Positions 5,139 through 51,135 of a stretch of 64,000 bases of DNA are shown one piece after another. This DNA comes from Patescibacteria group bacterium (GTDB lineage Bacteria > Patescibacteriota > Patescibacteriia > CAIXNZ01), in contig JAQTMG010000001.1 in assembly GCA_028714455.1 (NCBI GenBank), positions 64,568 to 128,567 of the forward strand. Reading direction: 5' to 3'. The position numbers and the translations under genes are program-made. Within the stretch, counting starts at the first letter, position 1; every line of letters begins with the position of its first letter. The notes beneath the pieces are model-generated. The model was not told the origin of the DNA. It searched no databases and saw only the letters and a list, made by a program, of their open reading frames with translations.

Positions 5139-7445
5139 TTAAAACTCATTATTCTTTTCAATTTCTTTTGCTTCCTCTTCGGCGTCAACCTCTTCTGATT
5201 CATCATCTGGTAATTCTAATTCTTCGTCTTCACTTTCTTCGTCAACTTCTTCCGAACCCTCATCGTTTGTTGGCAATTCTGCCTCGTTGTCATCAACTTC
5301 TCTTTCAGTCACTAAAATCTCTCTGGGTTTAGCGCCCTCGCCTGGCCCGACAATACCAGCCTCTTCCAGCAAGTCCATCAAACGCGCGGCTCGGGCGTAA
5401 CCGACTTTTAATCTTCTCTGCAAAAATGAAGTGGAAGCTTTGCCGGCTTGCAAAATTATTTCCTTAGCTTCTTCAAAAAGTTCATCGCCCTGATTTGGAT
5501 CAGAAAAATCAACGCTGCCGTCGCCGTTTAAAGATTGGTGTTTTTCCACAACCGCCCGGTCATAGTCGGGTTTTTCGCCGCTTTCTTTAAGGTAATCAAC
5601 CACGCGATTTATTTCTGCATCCGAGAGAAAGGCTCCTTGCAGACGTTTGGGCTTAGAAAGTTCGGCGCTGGTGTAAAGCATGTCGCCGCGGCCCAGAAGT
5701 TTTTCTGCGCCGGCGTGATCCAGGATTGTTCTGGAGTCAGTGATGGAAGCCACGGCAAAAGCGATTCTGCCGGGGATATTGGCTTTAATTAAGCCGGTGA
5801 TGACTTCAACCGATGGCCTTTGTGTCGCCAACACCAAATGGATACCAACGGCGCGAGACATTTGGGCCAAACGTATAATTAGACCCTCAACCTCATGACC
5901 CATGCTGGACATTAAGTCCGCCATTTCATCGACCACAAAAATTATATAGGGCATTTTTTCTTGAGAGATTTTATTAAAGTCATCGATATTTCTTTTGCCC
6001 ATTTTTTCCAAGACAATATAACGGCGATCCATTTCAGCTATGGTCCACTTCAAAGCGTTGACTGTTTTTTTCACGTCAGTGATAACTGGTGTCAGCAGAT
6101 GAGGTATCTCGTTATAAAGCGGCATTTCCACGCGTTTCGGGTCAACGATAATTAATTTTAAAGTGTCAGGACCATTTTGATAAAGTAAACTGGTTATGAC
6201 GGTGTGCAAGCAAACTGATTTGCCCGAACCAGTTTGGCCAGCGACTAATAAGTGCGGCATCTTGCCCAAATCAGCCACCCAGGTATTACCGGCTACATCG
6301 CGACCAAGCGGAATAGTCAGCAAGGTCTTGCGCTGTTTAAATTCCGGACTTTCCAAAAGCTCGCGTAAGCGTACGATGGCCACCGATTGATTGGGCACTT
6401 CAATGCCAACAAGCGACTTGCCGGGAATTGGCGCTTCAATTCTCAATGGGTGAGCGGCCAGGGCTAGGGCCAAATCATCTTGAAGCGCCGTGATGCGAGA
6501 AAGTTTAATGCCTTCGGCTGGTTTTAAAGTATATTGGGTAACTGTCGGGCCAACGCTAATGTCTCCCATCTCAACTGGTATGCCAAAACTCTCCAGGGTT
6601 TTTTGAATTATTTGTTTGTTGGCAGCGATGTTGCCCGAGGTCGGTTTGCTTAACTTGTCATCTAGCAAATCAAGGGGCAAATCTATTTTGTGATAAATCT
6701 TTTTTGTTTTTGGCTCATCGAGCTTGAATTCTTCTTTAGCCGATTCTTTTTCTCTAGTTTCGATTTTTTTGCTGGCAAAAGTAACCTCTTTTTCTTCTTC
6801 ATTTATAGCTTCGTTAGCTTCCTCGTCTTGTTCTTCTTCATTTTCATCGTACTCCTCCTCTCCGCGAGCAAATTTCAATTTTATGTGATAATACCAAATT
6901 GAAAGGCGATCAAAAATTTTGCCAAAAATCGAGCCTGATTCTCTGAAATTATCAATCGAATTATTAATCATTAACAAAATGGAGATGAAAAAAATCGCCA
7001 CCAGCGTGATCAGGGTCGCCCAAAAACCCATCACATTTTGTAAACTGTAGCTTAAAAATAATCCAACGTAACCGCCGCCACGCCCTTCATCAACGGCTAA
7101 GATAGCGTCACTCAATGGAATCACCAAGTGAAAAAGCGCCGTAAAACTCAAAACAAAGAAAAAGAAACCAACATAACTGATAGTGTTTATTTTTTCTTTT
7201 TTATTTAATAATACCCAGCCCCACAAAATTAAAATCACGGGAAAAGCGAATTTTGTCCAGCCCAAAAATAATGACAAAATTTTATCAATCTCTTCGCCCA
7301 CTCTACCCGCCAAATTAAATAAGCCAAGCAAAGAAATGCCGGCTATCGCGAATAAAAATATGATAAAAATCCACTTTTGCGTTTCTGGATGAATTTCTAC
7401 GCGTCTGATGCCATTTTTAGAGTTCCTATTTTTGTTTTTTGACAT
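5139..7445 (-). CDS. ftsK: DNA translocase FtsK/SpoIIIE with N-terminal TM domain, acidic linker and acidic C-terminal tail
   Basis: VAGQTGSGKSV Walker A, a full motor domain, and a gamma-like winged-helix followed by an E/D-rich extension. Confidence 0.9.
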   Translation of the reverse strand: MSKNKNRNSKNGIRRVEIHPETQKWIFIIFLFAIAGISLLGLFNLAGRVGEEIDKILSLFLGWTKFAFPVILILWGWVLLNKKEKINTISYVGFFFFVLSFTALFHLVIPLSDAILAVDEGRGGGYVGLFLSYSLQNVMGFWATLITLVAIFFISILLMINNSIDNFRESGSIFGKIFDRLSIWYYHIKLKFARGEEEYDENEEEQDEEANEAINEEEKEVTFASKKIETREKESAKEEFKLDEPKTKKIYHKIDLPLDLLDDKLSKPTSGNIAANKQIIQKTLESFGIPVEMGDISVGPTVTQYTLKPAEGIKLSRITALQDDLALALAAHPLRIEAPIPGKSLVGIEVPNQSVAIVRLRELLESPEFKQRKTLLTIPLGRDVAGNTWVADLGKMPHLLVAGQTGSGKSVCLHTVITSLLYQNGPDTLKLIIVDPKRVEMPLYNEIPHLLTPVITDVKKTVNALKWTIAEMDRRYIVLEKMGKRNIDDFNKISQEKMPYIIFVVDEMADLMSSMGHEVEGLIIRLAQMSRAVGIHLVLATQRPSVEVITGLIKANIPGRIAFAVASITDSRTILDHAGAEKLLGRGDMLYTSAELSKPKRLQGAFLSDAEINRVVDYLKESGEKPDYDRAVVEKHQSLNGDGSVDFSDPNQGDELFEEAKEIILQAGKASTSFLQRRLKVGYARAARLMDLLEEAGIVGPGEGAKPREILVTEREVDDNEAELPTNDEGSEEVDEESEDEELELPDDESEEVDAEEEAKEIEKNNEF

Positions 7446-7602
7446 AGTAATTTAAAAAATATAAGCGCTAAATTGCCCCTTTTGTATTCAAATTTTATCA
7501 TAAAAATATATATTAAGCAAAACAAAAAAACTCCGTAGGAGTTCAAATAATAAATTTTTCCAATTCCTAATATCTAATACCTAATTACTAATTTCCAAAC
7601 TT

Positions 7603-7660
7603 GAGCGGGGTGACCGGAATCGAACCCCGCACCGCAGGGGTACGGGGCAGGCCGTCACTG
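7603..7660 (-). pseudogene. 3' tRNA-like fragment (Gly-like acceptor ..ACCCCGCTCA) fused to the GC-rich motif
   Basis: rc: CTGCCCCGTAC..GTGCGGGGTTCGATTCCGGTCACCCCGCTCA. Too short for a tRNA and has no foldable T-arm. Confidence 0.35.
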
Positions 7661-7663
7661 TTG

Positions 7664-7736
7664 AGCGGGTAACGGGAATTGAACCCGTATCTCCAGCTTG
7701 GAAGGCTAGCATAATAAGCCATTATACTATACCCGC
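7664..7736 (-). tRNA. tRNA-Gly(TCC)
   Basis: rc: GCGGGTA..CTAGC-CTTCCAA-GCTGG..ACGGG-TTCAATT-CCCGT-TACCCGC-T. Weak, AT-rich D-arm. Confidence 0.6.
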
Positions 7737-7744
7737 ATGATTTA

Positions 7745-7821
7745 TGGTCGGGCTGGTGGGACTCGAACCCACGATCTCTTGGTCCCAAACCAAGCGCGAT
7801 AGCCAGCTTCGCTACAGCCCG
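7745..7821 (-). tRNA. tRNA-Pro(TGG), CCA encoded
   Basis: rc: CGGGCTG-TA-GCGA..TCGC-G-CTTGG-TTTGGGA-CCAAG..GTGGG-TTCGAGT-CCCAC-CAGCCCG-A-CCA. Confidence 0.85.
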
Positions 7822-7894
7822 TCAACAGCAAGAGTCATGAGATATGAGCAAGAGTATAAACTGTTGCTCAAAACTCTAATCTCAAAACTCACAT

Positions 7895-7950
7895 TGCCGA
7901 GGGGGAGAACCCCGTACTATATTTCGCCTTGCTCAATAAGTACGGGGCAG
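7895..7950 (-). pseudogene. truncated 3' fragment of a tRNA-Phe paralog (acceptor CCTCGGC-A) abutting the GC-rich motif
   Basis: rc: CTGCCCCGTAC-TTATTGAGCAAGGCGAAATATAGTACGGGG-TTCT-CCCC-CTCGGC-A. The acceptor 3' strand is complementary to the 5' fragment at 8141-8220. Confidence 0.4.
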
Positions 7951-8068
7951 GTCAGACTCCCGACCCCGCACCATCTCACTGCGTTCGATGTGCGGGGCAG
8001 GCTCGATTTCCTATACTGCCCTCGTCAACTATTTTTAAATTTTCAGACCGGAGTTTATCCCGCACAAA

Positions 8069-8140
8069 TGCCAAGGGGGAGAATCGGACTCCCGACGCAA
8101 GGATTTTCAGTCCTTCGCTCTACCACTGAGCTACCTTGGC
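8069..8140 (-). tRNA. tRNA-Phe(GAA)
   Basis: rc: GCCAAGG-TA-GCTC-AGTGGTA-GAGC-G-AAGGA-CTGAAAA-TCCTT-GCGTC-GGGAG-TCCGATT-CTCCC-CCTTGGC-A. Confidence 0.85.
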
Positions 8141-8220
8141 AAATAAATCCCTGGCATTTGTGCGGGGCTCTACCACTGCCTGCCCACCGAAGCACGAAGT
8201 GCGTAGGTGGGAGCTACCTC
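8141..8220 (-). pseudogene. 5' fragment of a tRNA-Phe paralog (GCCGAGG-TA-GCTC..AGTGGTAGAGC) with a 33-nt hairpin insertion in the D-loop
   Basis: rc begins GGCCGAGGTAGCTC[CCACCTACGCACTTCGTGCTTCGGTGGGCAGGC]AGTGGTAGAGC, followed by CCCCGCAC. Confidence 0.4.
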
Positions 8221-8320
8221 GGCCAGATATAAGTTTGTGTATGAATCGTACGAATCGTATTTTGCGATAAATCTAAAAATACGAATATAATCACTTCTGC
8301 ACACAGACTTATATCTGGCC
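8221..8320. repeat. 100-bp element with 20-bp terminal inverted repeats (GGCCAGATATAAGTTTGTGT ... ACACAGACTTATATCTGGCC), MITE-like
   Basis: 19/20 matching TIRs enclosing an AT-rich 60-bp core with a GAATCGTA direct repeat. Confidence 0.5.
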
Positions 8321-8336
8321 ACGGCCAATTTAATTG

Positions 8337-8376
8337 TGCGCGTGGATGGAATCGAACCATCGACCTCGTCATTACC
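8337..8376 (-). pseudogene. 3' half of a tRNA-Ile paralog (anticodon-loop to acceptor; acceptor CACGCGC-A)
   Basis: rc: GTGCGGGGCAG-GTAATGACG-AGGTC-GATGG-TTCGATT-CCATC-CACGCGC-A. Identical to the intact tRNA-Ile from position ~36 except for the acceptor. Confidence 0.45.
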
Positions 8377-8401
8377 TGCCCCGCACTAAATTTGCTAACT
8401 G

Positions 8402-8475
8402 TGGACGTGGATGGAATCGAACCATCGACCTCGTCATTATCAGTGACGCGCTCTAACCATCTGAGCTACACGTCC
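8402..8475 (-). tRNA. tRNA-Ile(GAT)
   Basis: rc: GGACGTG-TA-GCTC-AGATGGTTA-GAGC-G-CGTCA-CTGATAA-TGACG-AGGTC-GATGG-TTCGATT-CCATC-CACGTCC-A. Confidence 0.85.
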
Positions 8476-8575
8476 TTATTTAATAAAAAATTTTTAAAGC
8501 AAATTTCAGTGCGGGGTCAGTGACCGACCCCAAATCTTCAAAGCAGTGACCCCGCACCAATGCTTCGCATTGTGC

Positions 8576-8613
8576 GGGGCGCAGCGCGCTCTAACCATCT
8601 GAGCTACACGCGC
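8576..8613 (-). pseudogene. 5' fragment of a tRNA-Ile paralog (acceptor GCGCGTG, D-arm identical to the intact gene)
   Basis: rc: G-GCGCGTG-TA-GCTCAGATGGTTAGAGC-GCG, then CTGCGCCCCGCAC. The acceptor is complementary to the 3' half at 8337-8343. Confidence 0.45.
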
Positions 8614-8754
8614 CGATAAAAGTCTGTGATTATATAATTAAAACAATGCTTTCATTTTTTGATTAACAACGCGCTTTAACGCATTGCCTCATAAACTTTT
8701 ATCGGTGCACGCGCAAAAAAATTTATCAATAAGCGAATTATAACAAAAAAAATC

Positions 8755-8808
8755 GGCTTAATCAAGATCTTAACTGATATTAAATAAGCCGATTTTTTTT
8801 AAAAAGCG
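8755..8808. terminator. bidirectional intrinsic terminator downstream of 16S
   Basis: AATCGGCTTAAT...ATTAAATAAGCCGATT hairpin with T8 / A7 on either side. Confidence 0.5.
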
Positions 8809-8914
8809 TCTTTAACTGCTAAAAAGTGATAGAATCAAAATCCAGAAAATTTGTTTCGTTAGAAACAACCGACCTGATTAGAGCTGGCCCGAAAGCCGAG
8901 CTCATTACTCCTTA

Positions 8915-10406
<1,492 letters not shown>

Positions 10407-10815
10407 CAAATAAAATCTGATTGTAACCGTCAGAAGGATCTCCGCCGAAGGCGGATCCGCCTCTGGCGGAAAACTCTCAAATAAAATGATGATAAGGTTC
10501 ATCACAAAAACCTTCCCCAGTTGGGGAAATAAGGAATTGATTCTATCACTTTTTAGTTGTCAAAGAAGAAAAAACAGGGAAATCCATTGTCCATTAAAGT
10601 ATCCCGCGCGCGGGATTTTTAACAGATCGAATTTCTCTGTTTTTTCTCCTCCCCATCGGAGCTATTGCAAAGATGGGATATCTTTGAAAAATAAATTTTT
10701 TTACTTTTTTGAGAACTTTTTAAAGTTAATTTTAGATACTGGCATTATAAACTTTATTATTTAAGCTGTCAAGGGGTTAAAGCGGCCTTTTAATAAACAA
10801 CTTTTGCACAATAAA

Positions 10816-11571
10816 TTATGGATTATACCTATCCCAAACCATGTCATGAATGGAATTTACGGAATCCGCTACATCTTGATTTTTTATTAAAACAGCAAAG
10901 GGATTTTCTTCTGTAGTAAATATTATAACCATATCATCTAAAACGCCAAAAGATGCCTTGATTGGGTAAATTTTATGGGAGACAACAATAGACTCTCTTA
11001 ATTCTGCTTTGTCTTTTCTTAAAACATCCTTAAGAATGGGCGAATCAATCTGCCCAGACCCAATCATTCTACCACCTATGCCCTTAGAAACCCTTTTATT
11101 AATACATTGAGCTACTTGTTTTGTTCCATGCTGCAAAATCGTTCCTTCTACATTTTCAAATGATTTACCAAATTTTGTTTTGGCATTCTCTAGCCAAATG
11201 TCAGAAGCAATTTGCACGCCTTCTATCCCAGAATAATAGCTAATCGCCAATTTTTTTTCTGGTACACTTATTCTCTCAACTAAATCATCTGTTATCTCCT
11301 CCAGGGTTACCATTTTTCTTTCTAAAAGATAGCGCAGCTGTTTTGGACTTAGGGCCTGATATAATTTGCGTTTCTTCAATTTAAAAATTAACAAAAAACC
11401 CTTATCTACCAAATTTTGAACATGGCGATAAGCTGCCGTGCGGGGAATGCCAGCGCCTTTGGCGAGGTCGGACAATGAAGCTGATTCAAAATTTAAAGCC
11501 GCCCAATACAATTTAGCCTCATAATTATTAAGGCTAAAAACTTTTTTCAATTTTTCCATCTGATTTTCCAT
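10816..11571 (-). CDS. TrmB-family (archaeal-type sugar-regulator-like) winged-helix transcriptional regulator
   Basis: N-terminal wHTH (..LSDLAKGAGIPRTAAYRHVQNLVDKGFL..) typical of TrmB. The C-terminal domain is of unknown function. Confidence 0.6.
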   Translation of the reverse strand: MENQMEKLKKVFSLNNYEAKLYWAALNFESASLSDLAKGAGIPRTAAYRHVQNLVDKGFLLIFKLKKRKLYQALSPKQLRYLLERKMVTLEEITDDLVERISVPEKKLAISYYSGIEGVQIASDIWLENAKTKFGKSFENVEGTILQHGTKQVAQCINKRVSKGIGGRMIGSGQIDSPILKDVLRKDKAELRESIVVSHKIYPIKASFGVLDDMVIIFTTEENPFAVLIKNQDVADSVNSIHDMVWDRYNP

Positions 11572-11588
11572 GGCTATACCATATCAAA

Positions 11589-11660
11589 TGACGCAAATTA
11601 CGTCAAATTTTCAAAGAAGTAAATCGCTAATTTTAGATAAAATACCATGTCATATGACAT
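11589..11660. promoter_or_regulatory. two dyad-symmetric candidate operators in the divergent promoter region
   Basis: TGACG-caaatta-CGTCA (11589-11605) and the perfect 14-bp palindrome ATGTCATATGACAT (11647-11660). Confidence 0.3.
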
Positions 11661-11741
11661 TTATTGTCTACAAAAATTGATATTGCTTAGCGGACCTAAT
11701 ATACTACATTTAAGTGTGGTAATCTAACCGAATATAATTAT

Positions 11742-13121
11742 ATGTCAGAATATTCAAACATCAAAAAAGTTTCTCCTCCCGCCGAATTGCCCACGTACCA
11801 AGAAGAAAATGGTGATATTACTTTTTTTGGCAACACGACATTTAAAGAAGCTTACATAGAGAGGAAGGATGTATTCGGCATCTGGCGCTTTGATCGTCGC
11901 CAGCATATTTATATCATTGGTAAAACAGGAGTTGGCAAAACAAAGCTGATCGAACTCTTGACCAGAGCAGACATACTTGACGGTTTTGGCGTGTGTGTGA
12001 TAGACCCGCATGGCGACCTGATAAATTCTCTTCTCGATTATATTCCGGAAGGCCGATTAAAGGATGTTGTCCTGATTGATCCTACAGACACGAATTTCCC
12101 AGTGGCGTTTAATCCTCTTAAAAAAGTTGCGCCCGAGGCGAGACAGCTGGTGGCGAGCGGCTTACTTGAAGTTTTCCGCAAACAATTTGGCGATTTATGG
12201 ACCTCGCGCCTAGAACACGTGTGCAGATTCACAATTTTGGCGCTGCTAGAGTATGAGGAGGCGACGCTCGCCGATATATCTAAAATGCTCACCAACCCGA
12301 AATTCAGACAAGAAGTAATCCCGCGCATCTCTGATTCGGTTGTTCGCCATTTCTGGTCTCTGGAATTTAACAGCTGGAGCGAACGTTTTGACAACGAAGC
12401 CATCATCCCTCTCGTCAATCGAATGGGCCAGTTTTTGGCAAATCCGCTGGTGCGAAACACTTTCGCGCAAAAGGAAAATAAAATAAATTTTGACGAACTC
12501 ATAAATTCATCCAAAATCATACTTGTTAATCTGTCCAAGGGCATTATCGGCGAAGATAACACTGAACTTTTCGGCAGCATCTTGATTACTTCCATTTATC
12601 AGGCGGCTATGCGCAGGGCAAAGATTCCTAGTTCAGAGCGTTCTGATTTTTATCTCTATGTCGATGAGTTCCAAAACGTAGCGACGCAAACGTTTTTGAA
12701 TCTTTTTGCCGAATCAAGAAAATACGGATTGAATATTACCGTCTCCCACCAATATCTCGGCCAAGTTACCCCAAAAATGCGTGACACCATCTTCGGCAAC
12801 ACTGGGACAATTATTTCATTCCGTTTAGGAGGAGAGGATGCCGAGCGTTTGAACAAAGAATTCGCGCCCGTCTGCAAGGAAGAAGACCTGATCAATCTGG
12901 GTCAGCGTGAATTTGTAATAAAACTTTTAATCGCCGGAAACTCCTACGATCCATTTGCCGGCGAGACGCTAGAAGTGGAAGCCACAAAAACTTCGCACAA
13001 AGATCAGATAATCAACTATTCTCGATCAAAATATTCTCGCCCGATTAATGAACTAGAACAAGAAATGGCAGAGGGAGGCGCGGCAGAAAAAAAGGAGGAC
13101 TTTATAGCCCCGGTAGTTTAA
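11742..13121 (+). CDS. FtsK/HerA-superfamily P-loop NTPase (DUF87/HerA-like or TraD/VirD4/VirB4-like)
   Basis: Walker A IIGKTGVGKT, followed by VIDPHGDL, Walker B YLYVDEFQN, and ..ESRKYGLNITVSHQ.. No TM segments. Confidence 0.6.
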   Translation: MSEYSNIKKVSPPAELPTYQEENGDITFFGNTTFKEAYIERKDVFGIWRFDRRQHIYIIGKTGVGKTKLIELLTRADILDGFGVCVIDPHGDLINSLLDYIPEGRLKDVVLIDPTDTNFPVAFNPLKKVAPEARQLVASGLLEVFRKQFGDLWTSRLEHVCRFTILALLEYEEATLADISKMLTNPKFRQEVIPRISDSVVRHFWSLEFNSWSERFDNEAIIPLVNRMGQFLANPLVRNTFAQKENKINFDELINSSKIILVNLSKGIIGEDNTELFGSILITSIYQAAMRRAKIPSSERSDFYLYVDEFQNVATQTFLNLFAESRKYGLNITVSHQYLGQVTPKMRDTIFGNTGTIISFRLGGEDAERLNKEFAPVCKEEDLINLGQREFVIKLLIAGNSYDPFAGETLEVEATKTSHKDQIINYSRSKYSRPINELEQEMAEGGAAEKKEDFIAPVV

Positions 13122-13130
13122 TTTTTTGTT

Positions 13131-14849
13131 ATGGAAAATACTCCTTTGTTTAATTCTAAAATCAAAGAAATATTGAGCCAGCTCCGTCCGGGAGAGAGGA
13201 CCTGCCAAGAAACAGGGGAACGATATTTAATCCGCGAAGAAGATATCGCTTTCTATAAAAGAATGCTAGTGCCGGCGCCAGTTGTAGCGCCCTGGGTGAG
13301 ACAAAGGAATCTGCTGGCGCACGGATCTCCGCCGGATGAACTCTTTAAAATCAAATCGGCCTTATCTGGCAAAGAAATAATCACCAACATAGGACCATCG
13401 CCTGACGTGCCTGTCTACGCGGAGGATGAATGGTTTTCAGACGTCTGGGATGCGGCCGATTATGGCGTAGACTATAAACCCGGCGAAAGTTTCTTCAAAC
13501 AATTCCACGCCCTAAAGTTAAAAGTGCCTCGTCCCTGCAAACTGCCAGATGAGGGCAGTATTAATAGTCCCTGGGCCATAGGAGGCGTTCACATGAAGGA
13601 CTGTTATATGGTCTCGGCTGGTTACGAATGTGAAAACATCTTATATTCGGCCAGCGCAATTAAAAGTCGGGACTGTATGGAAATATTTTTCTCGGATTAC
13701 TGCGAGCTGGGCTACCAGCTTTTTCAATGCAAACACTGCTACAAATCTTCCTTTTTGGACGATTGCGAAAGCTGCATTAGCTGCACCTTTGGCTTTGATC
13801 TGAAAAATTGCGAAAATTGTTTTGGCTGCATTAATTTGCGCCACAAAAAATATAATTTTTTTAACCAACAGCTGACAAAAGAGGAGTACGAAAACAAAAT
13901 GAACGGCCTTAATCTGGGCTCCAGAAAAGAGTTGAACGAGTGGCAAAAAAAATTCAATGAATTTTATAAAAACAACGCCATAAGGGAAAACCTGCATTTA
14001 AAAAATACGCAAAACGTAGTCGGCGACAATCTAACTCAATGCAACGCCTGCTATAACTGCTTTGACTCCTACAACATCCAGGATTCTGCCAATGTTTTTC
14101 GCGGCATGAATGTCCGAGATAGCCATGACATCATGGGCGGCCTAAACATGGAAAAAAGTATCGGGCTGTGCGCGGTGGATTCATACAACGTAAAATATTG
14201 TACCGAAGCCATCTACAATTCAACCAATTTAGAATACTGCGAACTTTGCTACAATTTAGAGAATTGTTTTGGCTGCGTGGGTCTTAGAAACAAAAAATTT
14301 CACATACTTAACAAGCCATACTCGGCAGATGAATATTGGCAATTAGTTAATAAAATCAAGTATGAGATGCTGGCAAGCGGTGAGTACGGCCAGATTTTGC
14401 CGTTAAAATATTTAATCTACGGCTATAACTTAACCTGGGCGAACATTATCTTTCCCATAAACGAAGCGCGAGCCATGGCCATGAAGCTGCCCTGGCATGT
14501 TCACGAAAAAAACTCTGCTAATAATGGCCTCACGGCAGAATCTTTGCCCGATAATATTAAAGAGGCTGATTCAAAAATTATTGGCTCTTTATTGGTCTGC
14601 TCGGAAACCGGCCGATTATTTAAAATCGTAGAACAGGAATTCGATTTCTATAAAAAGATGAACCTGCCTTTGCCCGTCGCTCATCCCCTGGTCAGGAGAC
14701 AAAAATTATATAAAAAATTAAGAACGCCGATACTCTCCGAGAGCGTGTGCGGTAACTGCAATAAAAAAATAATGATACGCGGTTCAATAGAATCGCAAGT
14801 GGCAAAAAACGTCTGCGGTGATTGTTATTTAAAAATTATTAGCTCGTAA
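13131..14849 (+). CDS. 572-aa cysteine-rich protein with an internal duplicated CxxC module and matching N/C-terminal motifs; function unknown
   Basis: Lies 9 bp after the ATPase. The repeats are ..DCESCISCTFGFDLKNCENCFGCINLRHKKYNFFNQ.. and ..YCELCYNLENCFGCVGLRNKKFHILNK.. The N-terminus (CQETGERYLIREEDIAFYKRMLVPAPVVAPWVRQ) resembles the C-terminus (CSETGRLFKIVEQEFDFYKKMNLPLPVAHPLVRR). Confidence 0.75.
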   Translation: MENTPLFNSKIKEILSQLRPGERTCQETGERYLIREEDIAFYKRMLVPAPVVAPWVRQRNLLAHGSPPDELFKIKSALSGKEIITNIGPSPDVPVYAEDEWFSDVWDAADYGVDYKPGESFFKQFHALKLKVPRPCKLPDEGSINSPWAIGGVHMKDCYMVSAGYECENILYSASAIKSRDCMEIFFSDYCELGYQLFQCKHCYKSSFLDDCESCISCTFGFDLKNCENCFGCINLRHKKYNFFNQQLTKEEYENKMNGLNLGSRKELNEWQKKFNEFYKNNAIRENLHLKNTQNVVGDNLTQCNACYNCFDSYNIQDSANVFRGMNVRDSHDIMGGLNMEKSIGLCAVDSYNVKYCTEAIYNSTNLEYCELCYNLENCFGCVGLRNKKFHILNKPYSADEYWQLVNKIKYEMLASGEYGQILPLKYLIYGYNLTWANIIFPINEARAMAMKLPWHVHEKNSANNGLTAESLPDNIKEADSKIIGSLLVCSETGRLFKIVEQEFDFYKKMNLPLPVAHPLVRRQKLYKKLRTPILSESVCGNCNKKIMIRGSIESQVAKNVCGDCYLKIISS

Positions 14850-14875
14850 ATTTAATTTTGGATATTAAACTAAAA

Positions 14876-14910
14876 AGCCTCTTCGCGTCGCAAAGGGGTT
14901 TTTTAATATT
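14876..14910 (+). terminator. intrinsic terminator
   Basis: GCCTCTTCGCG..CGCAAAGGGG hairpin followed by TTTTTT. Confidence 0.45.
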
Positions 14911-15014
14911 TCTTCTTCTGTTTTTGAGAAAAAGAAAAACCCCGGTCCAGATTGCTTTTGACAAAATTGACCGGGTTTAAAATTCAAGTGCTTAAAAGAT
15001 CAAGAGACAAAAGG

Positions 15015-15785
15015 TCAAGAACTGAACTTCCGGGCGAGCGCAACGCGCAAACCGCCGGGGAAGCCGTAGGCCGAGTGGGTGCCGACACAGAGGCCATTGG
15101 AATTAAAGCAGCCGACAACGATGCAGACGCCAACGAAAGACGTCGAAGCACCCCAATGGTACCAACTCTCGGCAATTCGCTCGCCATCATTAACCATATA
15201 AATGGTCAGGATGGCTTCGGCAAAGACGGCCTCATGGCAGCGTTCGTAGTCGGCACCGAGTTTAGCGATTTTTGCGTCTTGCTTACCACAGTTCAAATTG
15301 GTAAACTGGCCGCGAAAGTTGATGAGGTAATAGCCGGTTTGGGGCATGAAAGTCGCCCACTTGTCCTCGTCGCTCTCGAGCCACCAGTCGTCGTCGTTAA
15401 AACAGGGCAGCTTGGTTTTGTCAACGCCGCGCTTTTCTCTTTGCTCGCGCAGGGAAAGGCCATTGATAAAGACCAGACGCCAGTCGGACTGACCGCTCTG
15501 GTTTTCATTGGCGCACTCGAGCAGGGTTTCTTCACTGTAGCGGATGGTTGCGCTTTTTGGCACTTCAATTTCCCAGGCCTTGCCAGCCTGCTCGGCAATG
15601 ATGACCTTGTTGGCGCCAAGAATGTTGATGGCGCGAACAATGGTCAGCCCCTTGGAAAACTTTTTGGGATTTTCCAGAAAAGCGCCAAGTTCCTCGCCTC
15701 CGACTGTTCCGTCCTTGATCATGCGCATCAGATCTTCCAGTTGCCCAGGTGTTACCGAGCAACCAATGACGACTTTTTTCTTCAT
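15015..15785 (-). CDS. hypothetical protein in a GC-elevated cassette-like unit
   Basis: Balanced composition, unlike the overlapping + ORF. AAAGGAGGAA SD 8 nt before the second ATG (MKKKVVIG..). Its own TTGACA-17-TATTAT promoter lies at about 15833-15862 (minus strand). A terminator hairpin lies at 14935-14985. Confidence 0.6.
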   Translation of the reverse strand: MKKKVVIGCSVTPGQLEDLMRMIKDGTVGGEELGAFLENPKKFSKGLTIVRAINILGANKVIIAEQAGKAWEIEVPKSATIRYSEETLLECANENQSGQSDWRLVFINGLSLREQREKRGVDKTKLPCFNDDDWWLESDEDKWATFMPQTGYYLINFRGQFTNLNCGKQDAKIAKLGADYERCHEAVFAEAILTIYMVNDGERIAESWYHWGASTSFVGVCIVVGCFNSNGLCVGTHSAYGFPGGLRVALARKFSS

Positions 15786-15938
15786 CGCCATTTCCTCCTT
15801 TACGTTTATAGCCCGCCGGCTTATTAATACTTAATAATATCGCAGTTTCACATCTTTGTCAACAATAAAACCACGGTTTATTCGAGGGTTATTAATTATA
15901 AAAAATATTTCCTTTTCCCAATACCCAATTCCAAATAC

Positions 15939-16596: not shown

Positions 16597-16655
16597 TAAG
16601 AGCTTGGAGCCTAGAGCTAAGTTCCCTAAGCCCAGGACCCTAAGCCCTTAGCTTA
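16597..16655. repeat. heptamer tandem repeats (GAGCTAA x4, then CCCTAAG x4)
   Basis: GGGCTAAGAGCTTGGAGCCTAGAGCTAAG followed by TTCCCTAAGCCCAGGACCCTAAGCCCTTAGC, directly downstream (minus sense) of the four-helix-bundle gene. Confidence 0.5.
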
Positions 16656-16996
16656 TTAATAAATGCGATTAATTGTTTACCAAGCTCTTCAGCTTTAATT
16701 ATTAAGTCGCGATGTTCTTGAACTGTTAAATAATTTTCATCAAGGGCAATGTCCAGACATGCCACGACTTCTTCAAGAGAAGTCAACGAAATATATAAAA
16801 ACCTTTTAAAATCTAAATCGCTATTTCTATTTGAACCTTCAGCTATATTTAAAACTACCGAATTTATAGCTCTTCTAACTTGTGAGGTAAGACAAAATGT
16901 CTCGTCCTTCGGGAATTTTTTTGATATACCATAAATTACTTTACGAAAAACCAAAGCTTCTTTATATATTCTAAATTCTCTAAATCTAAATAGCAT
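16640..16996 (-). CDS. four-helix-bundle protein (23S rRNA intervening-sequence protein family)
   Basis: ..YKEALVFRKVIYGISKKFPKDETFCLTSQVRRAINSVVLNIAEGS.R.S..DF.RFL.IS..SLEE.. The N-terminal 22 aa of the ORF are translated repeat DNA; the likely start is MLFRF at 16996. Confidence 0.7.
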   Translation of the reverse strand: MLFRFREFRIYKEALVFRKVIYGISKKFPKDETFCLTSQVRRAINSVVLNIAEGSNRNSDLDFKRFLYISLTSLEEVVACLDIALDENYLTVQEHRDLIIKAEELGKQLIAFINKLRA

Positions 16997-17003
16997 AAAT
17001 TTA

Positions 17004-17043
17004 TTAAGCCCCAAGCCCATAGCTCCGAGCTCAAAGCTAAATA
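17004..17043. repeat. heptamer repeats (AAGCCCC AAGCCCA TAGCTCC GAGCTCA AAGCTAA), inverse of the left-flank units
   Basis: Flank the upstream side of the four-helix-bundle gene. Contain AAGCCC, the complement of the GGGCTT/CCCTAAGCCC units on the other flank. Confidence 0.45.
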
Positions 17044-17106
17044 AATTATACCACATCGGCAAATAAAAAATCTCCGTAATTTTGCGGAGATTTTTTTATT
17101 TTAAAA

Positions 17107-30123: not shown

Positions 30124-30387
30124 TTACGGTACTGGATCGTGACCGCCTTTGGCAAGTGGATGACAGCGCATTATTCTTTTGGCGCCCAACCAAGTGCCTT
30201 TGATAACTCCATACTTTTGAATTGCCTCAAAAGTATATTCACTGCAAGTCGGATAAAAGCGGCAGCCCCAGAAAGGGAAGATGTAGCGCATTGGTCCGTG
30301 GTCAAACGATAAAGTTCTTTGATAAATCAAAATAACTAAAAGTGTGACGTTTTTTATCTGTTCTCCGATAGTTTTAATAATTTTCAT
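30124..30387 (-). CDS. yidD: membrane protein insertion efficiency factor YidD
   Basis: ..YQRTLS.....[19 protein letters not shown]...RI.RCHP....G.DPVP. Confidence 0.85.
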
Positions 30388-30737
30388 ATGAGTCTGGCTT
30401 TTCTTAAAGCTTCGCCCAGCACCCGCTCAATTTCCTTAAAATCCGCCACCCTGCCTTTCTCATAAATGATTTTAGGGGAAGTGATTACGGCAATGTCATA
30501 GCCGCTGGCAATCTGGCCCAAATTGTGGCGTAGAATCTCGCGGATTCTGCGCCTGATCAAATTGCGCTTATTTGCTCTTTTACTCACCTTGTTTGAGGTA
30601 ATTATGACAAAACGGGAGTAATTTAATCCGTTTTTCTGAAATCTTAGCACCAAAAATAAAAAATAAACCGCTTTGCCGTGCTTCATCAGCGACTCGATGT
30701 CTTTTTTAAGCTTTAAGCGGTTTATTTTTTTTAACAT
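30384..30737 (-). CDS. rnpA: ribonuclease P protein component
   Basis: Small basic protein placed between rpmH and yidD, with RnpA-like motifs. Confidence 0.8.
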
Positions 30738-30744
30738 ACTGTTT

Positions 30745-30897
30745 TCTATTTTCTCTTAGACCTCACGGTCAAGCGATGCCTGCCCTTGGCTCTTCTTCTT
30801 TTAAGTACGTGACGGCCATTTTTGGTCTTCATGCGCGCTCGAAAGCCGTGGGTTTTGGCTCTTTTTCGCTTTTTCGGCTGATAAGTTCTCTTTGGCA
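30745..30897 (-). CDS. rpmH: 50S ribosomal protein L34 (not in the ORF track; 50 aa)
   Basis: Hand-translated: [50 protein letters not shown]. Confidence 0.85.
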
Positions 30898-31103
30898 TAA
30901 AAGTGTAATAATTTATCGTGAAATTATACAGAGATAATAACAGTTGTGGAAAAATTTGTCAAAAAAAAAATTATGTATTAAGATGAATCCACAATTTGTG
31001 AACAAGCTATTAACATTTGTGACTTTTCTTAGATTTTTGTTCAATCTTTTTTATGTTATTATTTAATATAACGACTTCCTCAATCAAATAATTTCGGGGG
31101 ATT
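30898..31103. other. candidate oriC segment 1 (rpmH-dnaA spacer), AT-rich with DnaA-box-like 9-mers
   Basis: GAATCCACA and TTGTGGAAA / TTGTGAACA motifs. Classic rpmH<->dnaA position. Confidence 0.4.
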
Positions 31104-32477: not shown

Positions 32478-32762
32478 TTTTTGTTCACAGCGTGTGGATT
32501 AATATAATTTTTTCTGCGCAAAAGTTCTGCACATTAACTTTAAAAAGAATTGATAACTTCGGTAAAATTTTCACACCAAAATCTTTTGACTTTTTCACCC
32601 ACTTTTTATCAACCCACATACTACTATCTTTTACATAACTTTTAAACAACCATTTTGGGGTGATTTAATAAAATTTTCTGAAGAAAAATAAAAAATTATT
32701 AAAAAAATATTTTTCATCCACATCCTTATTATAATTACTATTAATTAAAACTATAAAAAACT
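32478..32762. other. candidate oriC segment 2 (dnaA-dnaN spacer) with DnaA boxes and an AT-rich unwinding region
   Basis: TGTGGATTA (32494-32502), TTGTTCACA, TCATCCACA (about 32716-32724), TTATCAACC. Also long A/T runs. Confidence 0.45.
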
Positions 32763-50709: not shown

Positions 50710-51135
50710 TTAACTTCCACCCGTAACTGTTCCTGGCGGTGTTCCCCCGCCACCTCCGCCGCCGACCGATTCCGTTATCGAATTCAAAACAAATGAGGCT
50801 ATCGAATAAGCGGCAATCACGATGATTAATCCGATCACGGCGTACATGATAGTACTTTTTGCCTTTTTAGTTTTGTCTGCTTCTCCCTGGGAAGTCATGT
50901 AAATAAAGCCTCCATATAAAATCAGACCAACAAAAATGATGCCGAGAAGGGTTAGAATTGATTTAATTATCAGCGACGCAACCTGTTGAGGCGGCATATA
51001 TGTGCCACCATAAATTTTTTGGCCAAAGCTGTTGACGTTTTCGCTGATGTTTAGGGCTAGTGACGGTTGAGTTAACAGCAGACAAAAGCCGGTTAAGATA
51101 ATGGGGATGAGTAAGAATTTTAAATTTTTTTTCAT
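50710..51135 (-). CDS. VirB2/TrbC-like pilin paralog P1 (Gly/Pro-rich tail ..GGGGGGTPPGTVTGGS)
   Basis: Signal peptide - helix (IIKSILTLLGIIFVGLILYGG) - MTSQGEADKTKKAK loop - helix - tail. Confidence 0.6.
   Translation of the reverse strand: MKKNLKFLLIPIILTGFCLLLTQPSLALNISENVNSFGQKIYGGTYMPPQQVASLIIKSILTLLGIIFVGLILYGGFIYMTSQGEADKTKKAKSTIMYAVIGLIIVIAAYSIASFVLNSITESVGGGGGGGTPPGTVTGGS

Follow-up and report, generated by a model that had tools for sequence, protein, structure and literature searches.

Within the 64-kb window analysed here (64,000 nucleotides of a Patescibacteria genome), a minus-strand unit running from promoter to terminator (8765-7518) contains four intact tRNA genes together with older Ile and Phe genes that survive as halves. 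The intact tRNA-Ile and tRNA-Phe each lie between the halves of a broken gene, as an earlier note on this DNA had described. We read the window copies, with a probability of about 0.56, as non-autonomous remnants of a family of GIY-YIG/hairpin mobile elements, which would enter the loops of RNA genes and heal the target with a spare tRNA. The inserts have a defined anatomy and exact insertion points, are present in some relatives and absent from others, and recur in Ile, Phe, Gly, Pro and 16S genes.

ARAGORN and Rfam call four tRNAs in the island, all on the minus strand and all downstream of a bacterial 16S gene (10413-8916, minus strand). The operon promoter (10 of 12 consensus matches) is the sole strong minus-strand site, is embedded in the terminator hairpin 3' of 16S, and is kept in the relatives L001, L018 and L021. 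Because one promoter and one terminator bracket the island, the whole of it is predicted to be co-transcribed.

8737-8765, minus strand: tRNA operon promoter, TTGATT-17-TATAAT
8402-8475, minus strand: intact inner tRNA-Ile(GAT), allele C, acceptor GGACGTG/CACGTCC, 74.9 bits (ARAGORN, Rfam)
8069-8140, minus strand: intact inner tRNA-Phe(GAA), acceptor GCCAAGG/CCTTGGC, 69.3 bits (ARAGORN, Rfam)
7748-7821, minus strand: intact tRNA-Pro(TGG) (ARAGORN, Rfam)
7664-7736, minus strand: intact tRNA-Gly(TCC), type R (ARAGORN, Rfam)
7604-7651, minus strand: hairpin CCTG-CCCCGTAC...GTGCGGGG (7651-7625), then tRNA-Gly type S 3' fragment (7624-7604)
7518-7544, minus strand: intrinsic terminator closing the tRNA operon

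The type S piece, preceded by its hairpin, is the degenerate Gly-like 3' fragment previously noticed beside tRNA-Gly, and it matches the intact tRNA-Gly of L003 and L028.

The outer Ile gene and its surroundings are composed as follows.

8708-8714, minus strand: 7-nt copy GCGCGTG of the outer Ile 5' acceptor strand, upstream of inverted-repeat element 1
8614-8707, minus strand: inverted-repeat (MITE-like) element 1, terminal repeats CCGATAAAAGT.../...ACTTTTATCGG, DNA fold z -3.8
8585-8613, minus strand: outer tRNA-Ile nt 1-28, allele A, acceptor GCGCGTG
8524-8584, minus strand: hairpin block, 61 nt, between outer Ile nt 28 and 29, fold z -4.0
8517-8523, minus strand: outer tRNA-Ile nt 29-35 (TCACTGA), directly before the cassette arm
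8375-8516, minus strand: Ile cassette at anticodon nt 35^36, arms CCCCGCACTGAAATTTGC / GCAAATTTAGTGCGGGG, CAGG tail
8337-8374, minus strand: outer tRNA-Ile nt 36-73, acceptor CACGCGC and discriminator A

This outer gene is complete, interrupted rather than deficient: the 5' and 3' fragments of the earlier description are both present, but nothing is missing, with nt 29-35 at 8523-8517. When 8613-8585, 8523-8517 and 8374-8337 are joined computationally, the product is called as tRNA-Ile(GAT) and is identical to the intact L001 allele. The fragment acceptors (GCGCGTG/CACGCGC) pair at 7 of 7 positions and differ from the intact gene (GGACGTG/CACGTCC) by two base pairs, as claimed; the 3' fragment (8374-8337) equals the intact gene apart from the acceptor, and the 5' fragment (8613-8585) matches it at 27 of 29 bases. 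At outer nt 35^36 the cassette reads CCCCGCAC...tRNA-Ile...GTGCGGGG-CAGG, and the block at 8524-8584 consists of the hairpin CCCCGCAC-AATGCGAAGCATTG-GTGCGGGG and a second TCACTG copy. In the predicted RNA fold, the arm helix and the acceptor helix of the shell (the outer halves) enclose the inner tRNA-Ile (z -5.9).

The outer Phe gene is broken into more pieces.

8319-8325, minus strand: 7-nt near-copy GCCGTGG of the outer Phe 5' acceptor strand
8224-8318, minus strand: inverted-repeat (MITE-like) element 2, fold z -5.7
8211-8223, minus strand: outer tRNA-Phe nt 1-13, acceptor GCCGAGG, intact counterpart in L018/L005
8178-8210, minus strand: 33-nt hairpin with CAGG tail in the outer Phe D-loop (C13^A14)
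8167-8177, minus strand: outer tRNA-Phe nt 14-25
8059-8166, minus strand: Phe cassette, inner gene bracketed by the 18-nt foldback CCCGCACAAATGCCAGGG / CCTTGGCATTTGTGCGGG
8039-8046, minus strand: outer Phe anticodon-loop remnant CTGAAAAT, both stem strands lost
7965-8001, minus strand: hairpin CCTG-CCCCGCAC...GTGCGGG, homologous to the outer Phe nt 39^40 insert in L025, L028 and L031
7952-7964, minus strand: outer tRNA-Phe variable loop to T-loop, GTCGGGAGTCTGA
7910-7951, minus strand: 42-nt hairpin CCTG-CCCCGTAC...GTACGGGG in the outer Phe T-loop, fold z -4.4
7895-7909, minus strand: outer tRNA-Phe 3' end TTCTCCCCCTCGGCA, acceptor CCTCGGC

Phe fragments with the acceptors GCCGAGG/CCTCGGC had been reported, and they are found at 8223-8211, 8177-8167, 7964-7952 and 7909-7895. 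The 3' piece, described as truncated, is present, but its T-loop holds the 42-nt hairpin (7951-7910) and the anticodon stem strands are lost; with that stem gone, the joined outer Phe of the window gives no tRNA call. The position homologous to CTGAAAAT is intact in L025, L028 and L031. The 33-nt D-loop hairpin, also noted before, has homologues at the same site in the outer Ile of L001 and the outer Phe of L031, where stem changes are compensatory, and an element related to the T-loop hairpin is present in the L031 outer Phe. The trailer after the outer Phe 3' end is that of the intact Phe gene in L018/L005.

Hairpin elements are strongly clustered in the island: the 8-mer GTGCGGGG has 8 copies within 7625-8579 and 2 in the remaining 63 kb (0.86 expected), and together with the variant GTACGGGG it reaches 12 copies in the island. 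The earlier note counted at least ten copies of the 11-nt motif; in full length it occurs only 4 times at no more than 1 mismatch. The A-A'-A hairpin triplets are real. The D-loop insert is a different hairpin that shares only GGGCAGG. Across the 76-nt stretch 8509-8584, identity is 96-97% in L001 and L018, genomes in which 16S is 95% and the ITS 84-88% identical, and 93% in L021, where hairpin 2 of the block is broken; conservation above that of the ITS (96-97% vs 84-88%) suggests host-side constraint.

The two inverted-repeat elements of ~95 nt adjoin the 5' ends of both outer genes, each after its 7-nt acceptor-strand copy. The layout with the GCGCGTG copy upstream is also found in L018 and L028, and members of the element 1 family stand immediately upstream of tRNAs, once in L018 and three times in L028. 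The 5' end of 16S carries a related insert.

10414-10484, minus strand: 16S 5'-end double hairpin, 57 nt (10470-10414), preceded by a 14-nt duplicate of the 16S start (10484-10471), z -3.7

This double hairpin is absent in L018 and has homologues at tRNA-Pro fragments in L001 and L025. Sites of the hairpin family comprise D-loops, T-loops, the 16S leader and two 16S insertions of L021; a hairpin between ssb and rpsR is found in L020 only. Homologous hairpins occur in different genes with compensatory stem changes, and at one D-loop site the same insert has opposite orientations in L001 and L021. The hairpin inserts have no constant target-site duplication; duplications vary from 7, 14 and 16 nt up to whole genes, a pattern that does not match a single transposase.

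The same nesting recurs in seven independent assemblies. Position 35^36 is interrupted in Ile (window, L018, L001) and in Gly (L003, and twice in L023), position 31^32 in Phe (L025, L028, L031). D-loop insertion at C13^A14 is shared by the window Phe, L001 Ile, L031 Phe and L025 Ile. Scans of the genome collection returned few loci, and recurrence refers to these islands. Joined outer genes of L018, L001, L025 and L028 are likewise called as tRNAs (five genomes with the window). Shell acceptor stems are perfectly paired in six of eight cases and covary between L025 (GCCGAGG/CCTCGGC) and L028 (GCCTGGG/CCCAGGC); those of L001 and L031 are mismatched, and their outer genes hold up to five inserts. 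Gly shell 1 of L023 is without its 3' half.

Empty sites exist among relatives for both nests. L018/L005 have an intact Phe gene with the acceptor and trailer of the shell, Phe is also uninterrupted in L001, an uninterrupted Ile gene directly follows the promoter in L031, and L028 has an Ile without a nest. The earlier note was right to derive the fragments from a once-intact paralog. Ile acceptor alleles change places, with A outside and C inside in the window and B-like outside and A inside in L001, and these shell/core swaps are accounted for neither by a single invasion nor by vertical descent. The T-arms of shell and core are identical within the window and within L001 and different in L018.

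Relatives carry single-domain GIY-YIG ORFs of 83-105 aa, sandwiched precisely between the fragment of a tRNA and its intact counterpart. In L025 the order is Pro, ORF, double hairpin and Pro 3' fragment; in L031 it is Gly shell, ORF and Gly; in L011 an Ile 5' shell whose D-loop holds a hairpin is followed by the ORF and then by Ile. L028 has one intact GIY-YIG ORF and one pseudogene, and L021 carries one inside its 16S helix-6 insertion, in an arm-ORF-arm layout bounded by CCCCACACC/GGTGTGGGG. All of these ORFs match Pfam GIY-YIG, and their nearest solved relatives are UPF0213 proteins (uncharacterised activity). The ORFs are physically linked to the nests, the link being one of position. A Y1_Tnp-like ORF lies near the L027 island. 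In the window, Pfam on ORFs to ~51.1 kb found no nuclease, transposase or integrase gene, tblastn over the whole 64 kb with the GIY-YIG and Y1 proteins of relatives found no such gene, and there is no RAYT. The proposal of a tRNA cassette inserted in the anticodon region of a paralog stands in substance, with the cassette exactly at nt 35^36, but its attC-like label is unsupported: neither a GTTRRRY core nor an integrase is present, and relatives point instead to small GIY-YIG genes.

Under the mobile-element reading, the island would be a record of repeated RNA-gene invasions by small palindromic elements. Each would be a CCC...GGG stem rich in G+C, in most cases with CAGG after it, and its variable interior would be no more than a few bases or else a gene, either one for a small GIY-YIG nuclease or one for a tRNA, whole or partial. 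Insertion would be into single-stranded loops of tRNA and rRNA genes (D-loop, anticodon loop at 31^32 or 35^36, T-loop). A cell whose essential single-copy tRNA gene is hit would survive only if the same event brought a working copy, so that the intact tRNA would come to lie inside the cassette and the resident halves outside as a shell. The shell would be co-transcribed, gain further hairpins and slowly decay, and gene conversion with the inner copy would keep its interior similar; since shell and core acceptors differ, a single recombination would give a mismatched tRNA, which would hinder loss of the cassette. As for enzyme and insertion chemistry, we infer that the break is made by a GIY-YIG protein, possibly a single-strand DNA nuclease of the Ssn kind with the hairpins as its substrate, and that spread may proceed through repair or recombination with incoming DNA, the conserved tRNA halves serving as homology. 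Counting against this reading are the lack of a nuclease gene in the window, the positional nature of the GIY-YIG link, the variable duplications, the exchange of Ile acceptor alleles between shell and core, the high conservation of the hairpin block and the perfectly paired acceptors of most shells.

It is unlikely that the shell and hairpin block are instead a functional RNA leader and trailer, kept after an old insertion to guide how the inner tRNA is processed, stabilised or released under regulation from the operon transcript. Such a role would suit an island co-transcribed from one promoter to one terminator, the alternative hairpins A-A'-A-tRNA-A', an RNA fold that nests the inner tRNA (z -5.9) and a block conserved above the ITS and equal to 16S, and the perfectly paired acceptors in six of eight shells could reflect RNA-level function rather than recent insertion. 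However, close relatives lack the nest (Ile in L031 and L028, Phe in L018 and L001), disruptive D- and T-loop inserts accumulate in shells, shell acceptors of L031 and L001 are mismatched, and block hairpin 2 is broken in L021.

Local duplication, deletion and gene conversion with no mobile element, the tandem copies arising by slippage at GC hairpins, is a quite improbable origin. Gene conversion is clearly active, as the T-arms indicate (identical in the window and L001, different in L018), and inserts are flanked by variable-length duplications, but each nest would require three copies and two precise deletions. The break nucleotides are identical across tRNA species and genomes (35^36, 31^32, 13^14), homologous hairpins lie in unrelated genes and also inverted, and in relatives the junctions are occupied by nuclease ORFs. 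The earlier note's third option, remains of duplication and deletion, describes the later decay but not the origin.

We consider it very unlikely that the inserts descend from group I introns by decay or miniaturisation, a 35/36 intron having gained a tRNA in a peripheral loop and lost its core. The site is typical for Patescibacteria tRNA group I introns (PMC13011429), the inserts end in G, and a genuine group I intron in the L021 16S is bounded by the same CCCCGCACC/GGTGCGGGG arms; against this, the island gives no group I signal even at E <= 5, the last base of the 5' exon is A in Ile and C in Gly rather than U, many inserts are only 27-61 nt, and the same elements occur in D-loops, T-loops and intergenic DNA.

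Less likely still, with a small residual chance for Ile, is the idea that the outer genes are functional split or intron-containing tRNAs from which the inserts, inner tRNA included, are removed and the halves ligated. The complete outer Ile of the window, valid joined outer tRNAs in five genomes, covarying shell acceptor stems (L025 vs L028) and a closing stem at the junction of every insert speak for it. Yet the window outer Phe is without an anticodon stem and is not a tRNA, the shells of L001 and L031 are mismatched and hold five inserts, Gly shell 1 of L023 is missing its 3' half, an intact isoacceptor always lies inside the nest, and the same allele is uninterrupted in relatives. No bulge-helix-bulge can form at 35^36 because only 2 bp lie between the junctions, and no splicing endonuclease is known from bacteria. 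Split tRNAs assembled through the GC motifs, as once suggested, are therefore unsupported. An assembly artefact (a strain-mixture or hairpin-induced chimera) is conceivable for a metagenome-assembled genome with inverted repeats that can mislead assemblers, but the same architecture in L001 (NCBI), in L018/L019, L025, L028 and L032 (ENA) and in L021 and L031 (JGI), assemblies that come from different samples and pipelines, with L018 and L019 from different samples and identical in island sequence, makes an artefact extremely unlikely.

Several known systems resemble the proposed elements in part. Single-domain GIY-YIG proteins of ~94 aa are site-specific single-strand DNA nucleases that bind hairpin repeats (NTS/SRM, with NTS-ssnA-NTS units), in which the C directly after the palindrome is critical, and the Ssn nuclease, whose substrate is single-stranded DNA, influences how incoming DNA recombines (PMC11893778, Chenal et al. 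2025). Both systems associate a ~90-aa single-domain GIY-YIG protein with 20-50-nt G+C-rich hairpin repeats oriented by flanking bases (here a palindrome followed by CAGG or CAAG), and the L021 element has the arm-ORF-arm layout. Island repeats differ in motif sequence, in tRNA cargo and in being concentrated inside RNA genes rather than genome-wide; the island ORFs resemble the Ssn proteins (clade cd10448) in domain and size, and their nearest solved relatives are UPF0213.

Free-standing homing endonucleases (fungal mitochondrial GIY-YIG/LAGLIDADG ORFs; T4 SegB in a tRNA cluster; PMC2988022, PMC13096335) also have a nuclease ORF adjoining the target, a replacement end that keeps the invaded gene functional, a resident fragment that stays as a pseudogene, patchy presence among relatives, and an ORF that later decays and is lost. 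The island differs in that its targets are tRNA loops with whole tRNA genes nested in the resident anticodon, its elements are bounded by palindromic hairpins, and its ORFs are without classical DNA-binding domains. Allomyces atp6 is another case of a homing endonuclease gene arriving with a duplicated part of its target. REP/BIME elements with RAYT (IS200/IS605-type Y1) are likewise short G+C-rich imperfect palindromes with a conserved tetranucleotide at one foot, in both orientations and in pairs or triplets, and a Y1_Tnp-like ORF is found near the island of L027; REPs are extragenic with hundreds per genome, whereas island copies within 64 kb are all in one RNA-gene island, and the tetranucleotide is CAGG vs GTAG.

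Integrase-driven islands and prophages in tRNA genes, with anticodon-loop and T-loop sublocations, were reportedly described by Williams in 2002. They share tRNA loops as entry points, an element-borne copy that restores the gene and a displaced 3' fragment as a direct repeat (compare Pro in L001 and L025). The nests, in contrast, have no integrase and inserts of 30-200 nt, include a 5' fragment as well, and hold a complete inner gene whose acceptor mismatches the displaced fragments. The group I introns found at position 35/36 of Patescibacteria tRNAs (Nakagawa et al. 2026, PMC13011429) share phylum, the unusual anticodon-loop site and inserts ending in G, and the 16S gene of a relative holds a genuine group I intron flanked by the island arm sequence; island inserts are without a ribozyme core or a 5' exon ending in U and hold a second tRNA, and the host gene appears inactivated, not spliced. 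Archaeal split, permuted and multi-intron tRNAs (PMC3978253) have several interruption sites, including D- and T-arms, G+C-rich complementary break-point sequences and related inserts apparently moved between tRNA genes, whereas here the host is bacterial, there is no bulge-helix-bulge, and the interrupted genes are redundant and decaying with the intact copy inside the insert. Mobile GC clusters and double-hairpin or repetitive hairpin elements of mitochondria (PMC4478555, PMC2800124) are small G+C-rich hairpins of A+T-rich compact genomes, in or beside RNA genes, in both orientations and sometimes double (compare window 10470-10414), but are organellar, with no known enzyme, tRNA cargo or nesting.

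Read as relics of mobile elements, the nests would represent a recurring, apparently undescribed route for selfish DNA into essential single-copy RNA genes of small-genome Patescibacteria.

The window is chromosomal DNA from the metagenome-assembled genome of a member of the Patescibacteria (CPR). Its tRNA island reads on the minus strand in the order 16S rRNA (10413-8916), half of a processing stem, a terminator hairpin with an embedded promoter, the tRNA genes, a terminator and FtsK. Its intact tRNA-Ile, -Phe, -Pro and -Gly are the only four tRNAs in the window (ARAGORN and Rfam), and none encodes CCA. No 23S gene was found in the 64-kb window, 16S is followed by neither 23S nor 5S, and the rRNA genes are unlinked here. 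The neighbouring genes are all of ordinary kinds, with S6, SSB, S18, EF-P, RecA and FtsK to one side, TrmD, S16 and trigger factor further away and rnpA-dnaA-dnaN near 30-34 kb. The tRNA fragments described in an earlier note are present in the sequence. Below, the broken older tRNA halves are called the shell or outer gene, the intact tRNA inside a cassette the core or inner gene, and both together a nest; n^m is an insertion point between tRNA nucleotides n and m, and L numbers are handles for loci or assemblies of relatives.

Features of the 16S leader and tRNA island
10414-10484, minus: 16S leader, a 57-nt double hairpin (10470-10414) preceded by a 14-nt copy of the first bases of 16S (TTATTTGAGAGTTT)
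8765-8737, minus: promoter TTGATT-17-TATAAT, inside the terminator hairpin downstream of 16S
8714-8708, minus: 7-nt acceptor-strand copy GCGCGTG, after the promoter
8707-8614, minus: inverted-repeat element 1 (~95 nt), preceding outer Ile
8613-8585, minus: outer Ile nt 1-28
8584-8524, minus: 61-nt hairpin block in outer Ile
8523-8517, minus: outer Ile nt 29-35, TCACTGA
8516-8375, minus: Ile cassette, consisting of arm CCCCGCACTGAAATTTGC, spacer, intact tRNA-Ile, spacer, arm GCAAATTTAGTGCGGGG and CAGG
8374-8337, minus: outer Ile nt 36-73
8325-8319, minus: near-copy of the acceptor strand, before element 2
8318-8224, minus: inverted-repeat element 2 (~95 nt), preceding outer Phe
8223-8211, minus: outer Phe nt 1-13
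8210-8178, minus: D-loop hairpin, 33 nt, with CAGG tail
8177-8167, minus: outer Phe nt 14-25
8166-8059, minus: Phe cassette, intact tRNA-Phe between 18-nt foldback arms
8046-8039, minus: outer Phe anticodon-loop remnant
8001-7965, minus: hairpin in outer Phe
7964-7952, minus: outer Phe nt ~46-58
7951-7910, minus: T-loop hairpin, 42 nt
7909-7895, minus: outer Phe 3' end
7651-7604, minus: hairpin and 3' end of a second Gly type, after tRNA-Gly
7544-7518, minus: single terminator of the tRNA island, followed by FtsK

Relatives were found via FtsK homologues and one ITS pattern, and the nearest are labelled Candidatus Falkowbacteria, Parcubacteria and Buchananbacteria. L001, L018/L019/L005 and L021 have 16S ~95% identical to that of the window, and L025, L028/L027 and L031/L032 are more distant (FtsK protein 76-79% identical to the window); the order 16S-Ile-Phe-Pro-Gly is common to all of them. 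A genome-collection scan returned 13 loci, two with the island beside FtsK, and querying metagenomes with a conserved 22-mer of the ITS yielded one contig, L021. Viral sequences scanned for hairpin or junction patterns yielded either no match or two chance ones in unrelated G+C-rich coding DNA, and there is no evidence that phages carry the elements.

The surroundings of the island vary. Between TrmD and 16S the window (10816-15827) encodes a TrmB-type regulator, a TrwB/VirD4-like coupling ATPase and two ORFs without a Pfam match; in L001 these four genes are missing and TrmD directly precedes 16S, and L027 has a Y1_Tnp-like ORF, radical SAM, TrmB and an IS481-type transposase in the interval, which is a variable insertion point. 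TrmB adjoins FtsK without an intervening 16S-tRNA island in L004 (1800-2660) and L023 (5146-6001), so the rRNA-tRNA module as a whole moves within the group. A PF05635 gene ("23S rRNA intervening sequence" four-helix-bundle, Avd-like) recurs beside RNA-gene islands (window 16640-17062, L025 1897-2142, L027 709-1080), lying between tRNA-Phe and tRNA-Pro in L025. Elsewhere in the window, rnpA, dnaA and dnaN lie together at 30384-33917 at the cumulative GC skew minimum, the probable replication origin region, and an ORF with TrbC/VirB2-type pilin domains (50710-51135) together with a coupling-protein-like ORF (11742-13121) suggests that this chromosome has genes for type IV secretion or DNA transfer.

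At the Ile locus the earlier note had described a paralogous tRNA split into halves around the intact gene. The fragments do flank that gene, but the outer gene is not incomplete: it is whole when its three pieces are joined. The joined sequence is called tRNA-Ile(GAT) by ARAGORN and equals the intact tRNA-Ile of L001 base for base. Because the joined outer gene is a complete tRNA identical to the L001 gene, the cassette must split the anticodon precisely at 35^36 and has cost the target no bases. ARAGORN with introns allowed reported neither the outer genes nor any extra gene. The predicted RNA fold of the region is also a nest of shell acceptor helix, arm helix and inner cloverleaf (z -5.9).

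An Ile nest with the same hairpin block and junctions occurs in L018, L001 and, for its 5' part, L021. Ile is uninterrupted in L031, where it directly follows the promoter, and L028 has only an inverted-repeat element with a duplicated acceptor. Three acceptor alleles are distributed over shells and cores: A (GCGCGTG/CACGCGC), B (GGGCGTA/TACGCCC) and C (GGACGTG/CACGTCC).

Ile acceptor alleles in shell and core
Window: shell A, core C
L018: shell A, core B
L001: shell B-like, core A
L021: shell B; the contig ends before the core
L025: shell B, core C

Vertical descent of these alleles was rejected, since the halves of a pseudogene would have had to change in concert. Identity across the 76-nt hairpin block reaches 96-97% in genomes that share 95% in 16S and 84-88% in the ITS, which argues for constraint or repeated overwriting. 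The joined outer genes of L018, L001, L025 and L028 are called tRNAs. Of eight shells, six have an acceptor helix that is paired throughout, and L025 and L028 differ there by two compensatory pairs; the shell of L031 has two mismatches and one G-T, and that of L001 one mismatch and one G-T. Shell and core have evidently undergone gene conversion, because the shell T-stem of the window and L001 equals the core's GATGG/CCATC and that of L018 differs (CCTGG/CCAGG).

Both Phe fragments reported in the earlier note were likewise found, although the outer gene has additionally lost its anticodon stem and gained a T-loop hairpin; the joined gene is not called as a tRNA. The note had also proposed looking for an empty site in related genomes, and one exists: Phe in L018/L005 is uninterrupted and carries exactly the shell acceptor GCCGAGG/CCTCGGC and the trailer of the window's outer 3' end. 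Phe is uninterrupted in L001 as well. A homologous nest is found in L025, L028 and L031 (CCCTGCACC...inner Phe...GGTGCAGGG-CAGG at 31^32), and a second hairpin, at 39^40, has the loop GAACGNAGTGAG in common with window 8001-7965. The window D-loop insert has homologues, with compensatory changes in their stems, in two other outer genes, L001 Ile and L031 Phe. One D-loop insert points in opposite directions in L001 and L021, at an identical site. The 3' flank of the window inner Phe is the sequence that follows the outer 3' end in L031, and its 5' flank is an inverted copy of the inner Phe's own 3' end.

Gly is nested at 35^36 in L023/L025, with outer halves GCGGGTG.../...CACCCGC around CCCGCCTGCC...intact Gly...GCGGGCAGG and, beside the nest, an older Gly fragment with a 30-nt hairpin likewise at 35^36; L003 Gly has the same right junction (GGCGGGCAGG^CAAGCTGG). 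The 16S gene of L021 (minus strand 1403-1697, 2087-2419) carries two insertions, a group I intron that Rfam scores at 60 bits, located at GTGCCAG^CAGC and bounded by CCCCGCACC/GGTGCGGGG, and 330 nt in helix 6, bounded by CCCCACACCTTT/AAAGGTGTGGGG, that encode a GIY-YIG ORF. L025 2571-2641 (= L023 888-958), a Pro 3' fragment from the D-loop on with a double hairpin in place of the 5' part, is called tRNA-Pro by ARAGORN and Rfam and is an annotation trap. The tRNA-Pro anticodon stems of the window (7748-7821) and L018 (2751-2827) differ by two compensatory pairs (CTTGG/CCAAG vs TCTGG/CCAGA), and the 73-nt spacer upstream is 98.6% identical; tRNA stems here either evolve more quickly than their flanks or are exchanged.

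The clustering of a GC motif claimed in the earlier note was borne out, with eight copies of the 8-mer GTGCGGGG in 7625-8579 and two in the rest of the window (0.86 expected). The full 11-nt motif is rare (four copies at <=1 mismatch), and the real common feature is a CCC...GGG palindrome followed by CAGG. The hairpins include CCCCGCAC...GTGCGGGGCAGG and CCCGCC...GGCGGGCAGG, the junctions read ...GGGGCAGG^TAAT and ...GGGCAGG^CAAG, and folding is far better than in shuffled controls (DNA z -3 to -5.7 for most). Scanning the whole 64 kb for G+C-rich hairpins showed the family to be absent outside this one island. The hairpin inserts were found to share neither a constant target tetranucleotide nor a fixed target-site duplication, and no ribozyme, intron or known small RNA came up when the island was searched with Rfam at E <= 5. 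The 16S-leader double hairpin (CCGCC-AGA-GGCGG, CCGCC-TTCG-GGCGG) has homologues at the Pro 3' fragment in L001 and L025; L018 has one copy of the 16S start, without the insert. The ~95-nt elements (8707-8614 and 8318-8224) have 16-20-nt terminal repeats and a 7-nt acceptor-strand copy on the far side, and additional copies occur in L018 and L028. Another G+C-rich element of ~100 nt, starting ACCCCGCACCAG...GGTGCGGG..GTGCGGGG, is common to L020 (5560-5690), where it separates ssb from rpsR, and L006 (2035-2135), where it lies in the 5' part of a gene for 261 aa. Rfam has no match for it, and the ssb-rpsR spacers of the window, L001 and L003 lack it.

Islands of relatives contain ORFs of 83-105 aa, sited at junctions, whose only Pfam match is the GIY-YIG catalytic domain and whose nearest solved chains are UPF0213 BH0048 and EF2693. 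The order in L025 is intact Pro, GIY-YIG ORF, double hairpin and a Pro 3' fragment starting in the D-loop, and in L031 decayed Gly shell, GIY-YIG ORF and intact Gly; L028 has two, an intact ORF and a pseudogene, and behind each come an inverted-repeat element and a tRNA. Four of the GIY-YIG ORFs have the coordinates L025 2296-2547, L028 3518-3784, L031 9083-9400 and L021 2353-2105. In the distant L011 (FtsK 51% identical), an Ile 5' shell with D-loop hairpin precedes a GIY-YIG ORF and intact Ile, and ahead of the intact gene, at 7940-8260 (partly masked, N), this shell with its hairpin and the GIY-YIG unit's tail recur in tandem at least twice. A Y1_Tnp-like ORF lies near the island in L027 only. 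The relatives' GIY-YIG and Y1_Tnp proteins had no tblastn match in the window, and Pfam scans of its large ORFs to ~51.1 kb turned up neither a transposase nor an integrase nor an RNA ligase.

The components are similar to kinds already known, namely a hairpin repeat with a small nuclease, a homing cassette with target duplication, and a MITE. Ssn proteins are a close precedent: they are single-domain GIY-YIG proteins of ~94 aa that act as site-specific single-strand DNA nucleases, bind oriented hairpin repeats and need a C just after the palindrome; their genes are often repeat-flanked like an insertion sequence, and they modulate recombination of transforming DNA (PMC11893778). The Ssn/SRM system comprises ~90-100 aa proteins of the cd10448 clade and 20-50-nt hairpin repeats with oriented flanks, in many copies beside the nuclease gene; here the hairpins have a C(A/G)GG foot and adjoin ORFs in L021 and L025, and their copy number outside the islands is low. 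A junction ORF with patchy distribution, as in a homing-endonuclease cassette with target duplication, is found in L025, L031, L011 and L028; the window itself has no such ORF. Only the ~95-nt elements have the set of features of a MITE (short, non-coding, terminal inverted repeats, target-site duplication, several copies). Literature searches turned up no account of a tRNA gene sitting within the anticodon of a paralogous one, or of bacterial tRNA genes colonised by GIY-YIG ORFs and hairpins. The phenomenon is recurrent, position-specific and testable.

The most likely mechanism is that a family of palindromic elements inserts in the loops of RNA genes; the family's autonomous form would be arm-GIY-YIG-arm. 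Insertion in a single-copy tRNA gene would be kept only if the same event brought a functional copy, either a whole tRNA, as in the nests, or the missing half, as for Pro in L001 and L025 and Ile in L011. The displaced halves would remain as a shell that is co-transcribed, collects more hairpins and decays. Any single recombinant between shell and core would be a mismatched tRNA, and the acceptor difference thus presumably stabilises the nest; two crossovers would bring back an uninterrupted gene, and this may have occurred at L018 Phe. We infer a role for the GIY-YIG protein, action on single-stranded DNA and spread by recombination with incoming DNA.

Four observations fit this mechanism poorly: the swapping of Ile alleles, the conservation of the hairpin block, the paired shell acceptors and the inner Phe flanks. 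Because of them, an RNA-level role of the shell and hairpins is kept alive, as is, at low probability, a productive outer Ile. In the latter case the outer tRNA-Ile would still be matured, with RNase P and RNase Z freeing the inner tRNA, the inserts cut at their closing stems and the halves ligated. This is very improbable; if true, one locus would yield two isodecoders with different acceptor stems, and bacteria would have a tRNA intervening-sequence system that depends on proteins and whose intron holds a tRNA gene.

The inserts carry a terminal G like a group I intron, but no Intron_gpI match at E <= 5 was found in 7400-8950 and the last base of the 5' exon is A35 (Ile) or C35 (Gly). Split tRNAs of the archaeal type, raised in the earlier note, find no bulge-helix-bulge here and only 2 bp between junction-proximal segments by inspection; as a needed copy such a tRNA was rejected, since each nest has an intact isoacceptor, outer Phe lacks an anticodon stem and the L001 and L031 shells are mismatched. 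Integrase-type tRNA islands have a tyrosine or serine integrase and a tRNA 3' direct repeat at the far end only; here no integrase was found among the large ORFs to ~51.1 kb, and 5' and 3' fragments both flank a complete inner gene with a non-matching acceptor. The attC-like label is not supported, as integrons have inverse core RYYYAAC, core GTTRRRY, IntI and attI, and the junctions have no core site and the ORFs scanned in the window no integrase. REP/RAYT systems, in which REPs lie outside genes in hundreds of copies and also flank a RAYT gene, are dismissed because all copies within the 64 kb lie in a single island and the window has no Y1 transposase.

If insertion of palindromic elements with a supplied tRNA copy is the correct reading, selfish DNA can colonise essential RNA genes of the most streamlined bacteria, which have one gene per tRNA, given a spare. 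Position 35/36 is where group I introns of Patescibacteria are concentrated (PMC13011429), and that the Ile and Gly nests use this preferred tRNA intron site of the phylum hints at a shared targeting logic. The tRNA fragments lead to annotation errors, and nests escape standard tRNA finders. The same reading would account for how very quickly tRNA alleles are replaced among close relatives here. It would also place the single-domain GIY-YIG nucleases, a large and mostly uncharacterised family that attracts current interest as a source of single-strand DNA tools, and their hairpin partners in a concrete cellular context, the loops of tRNA and rRNA genes.
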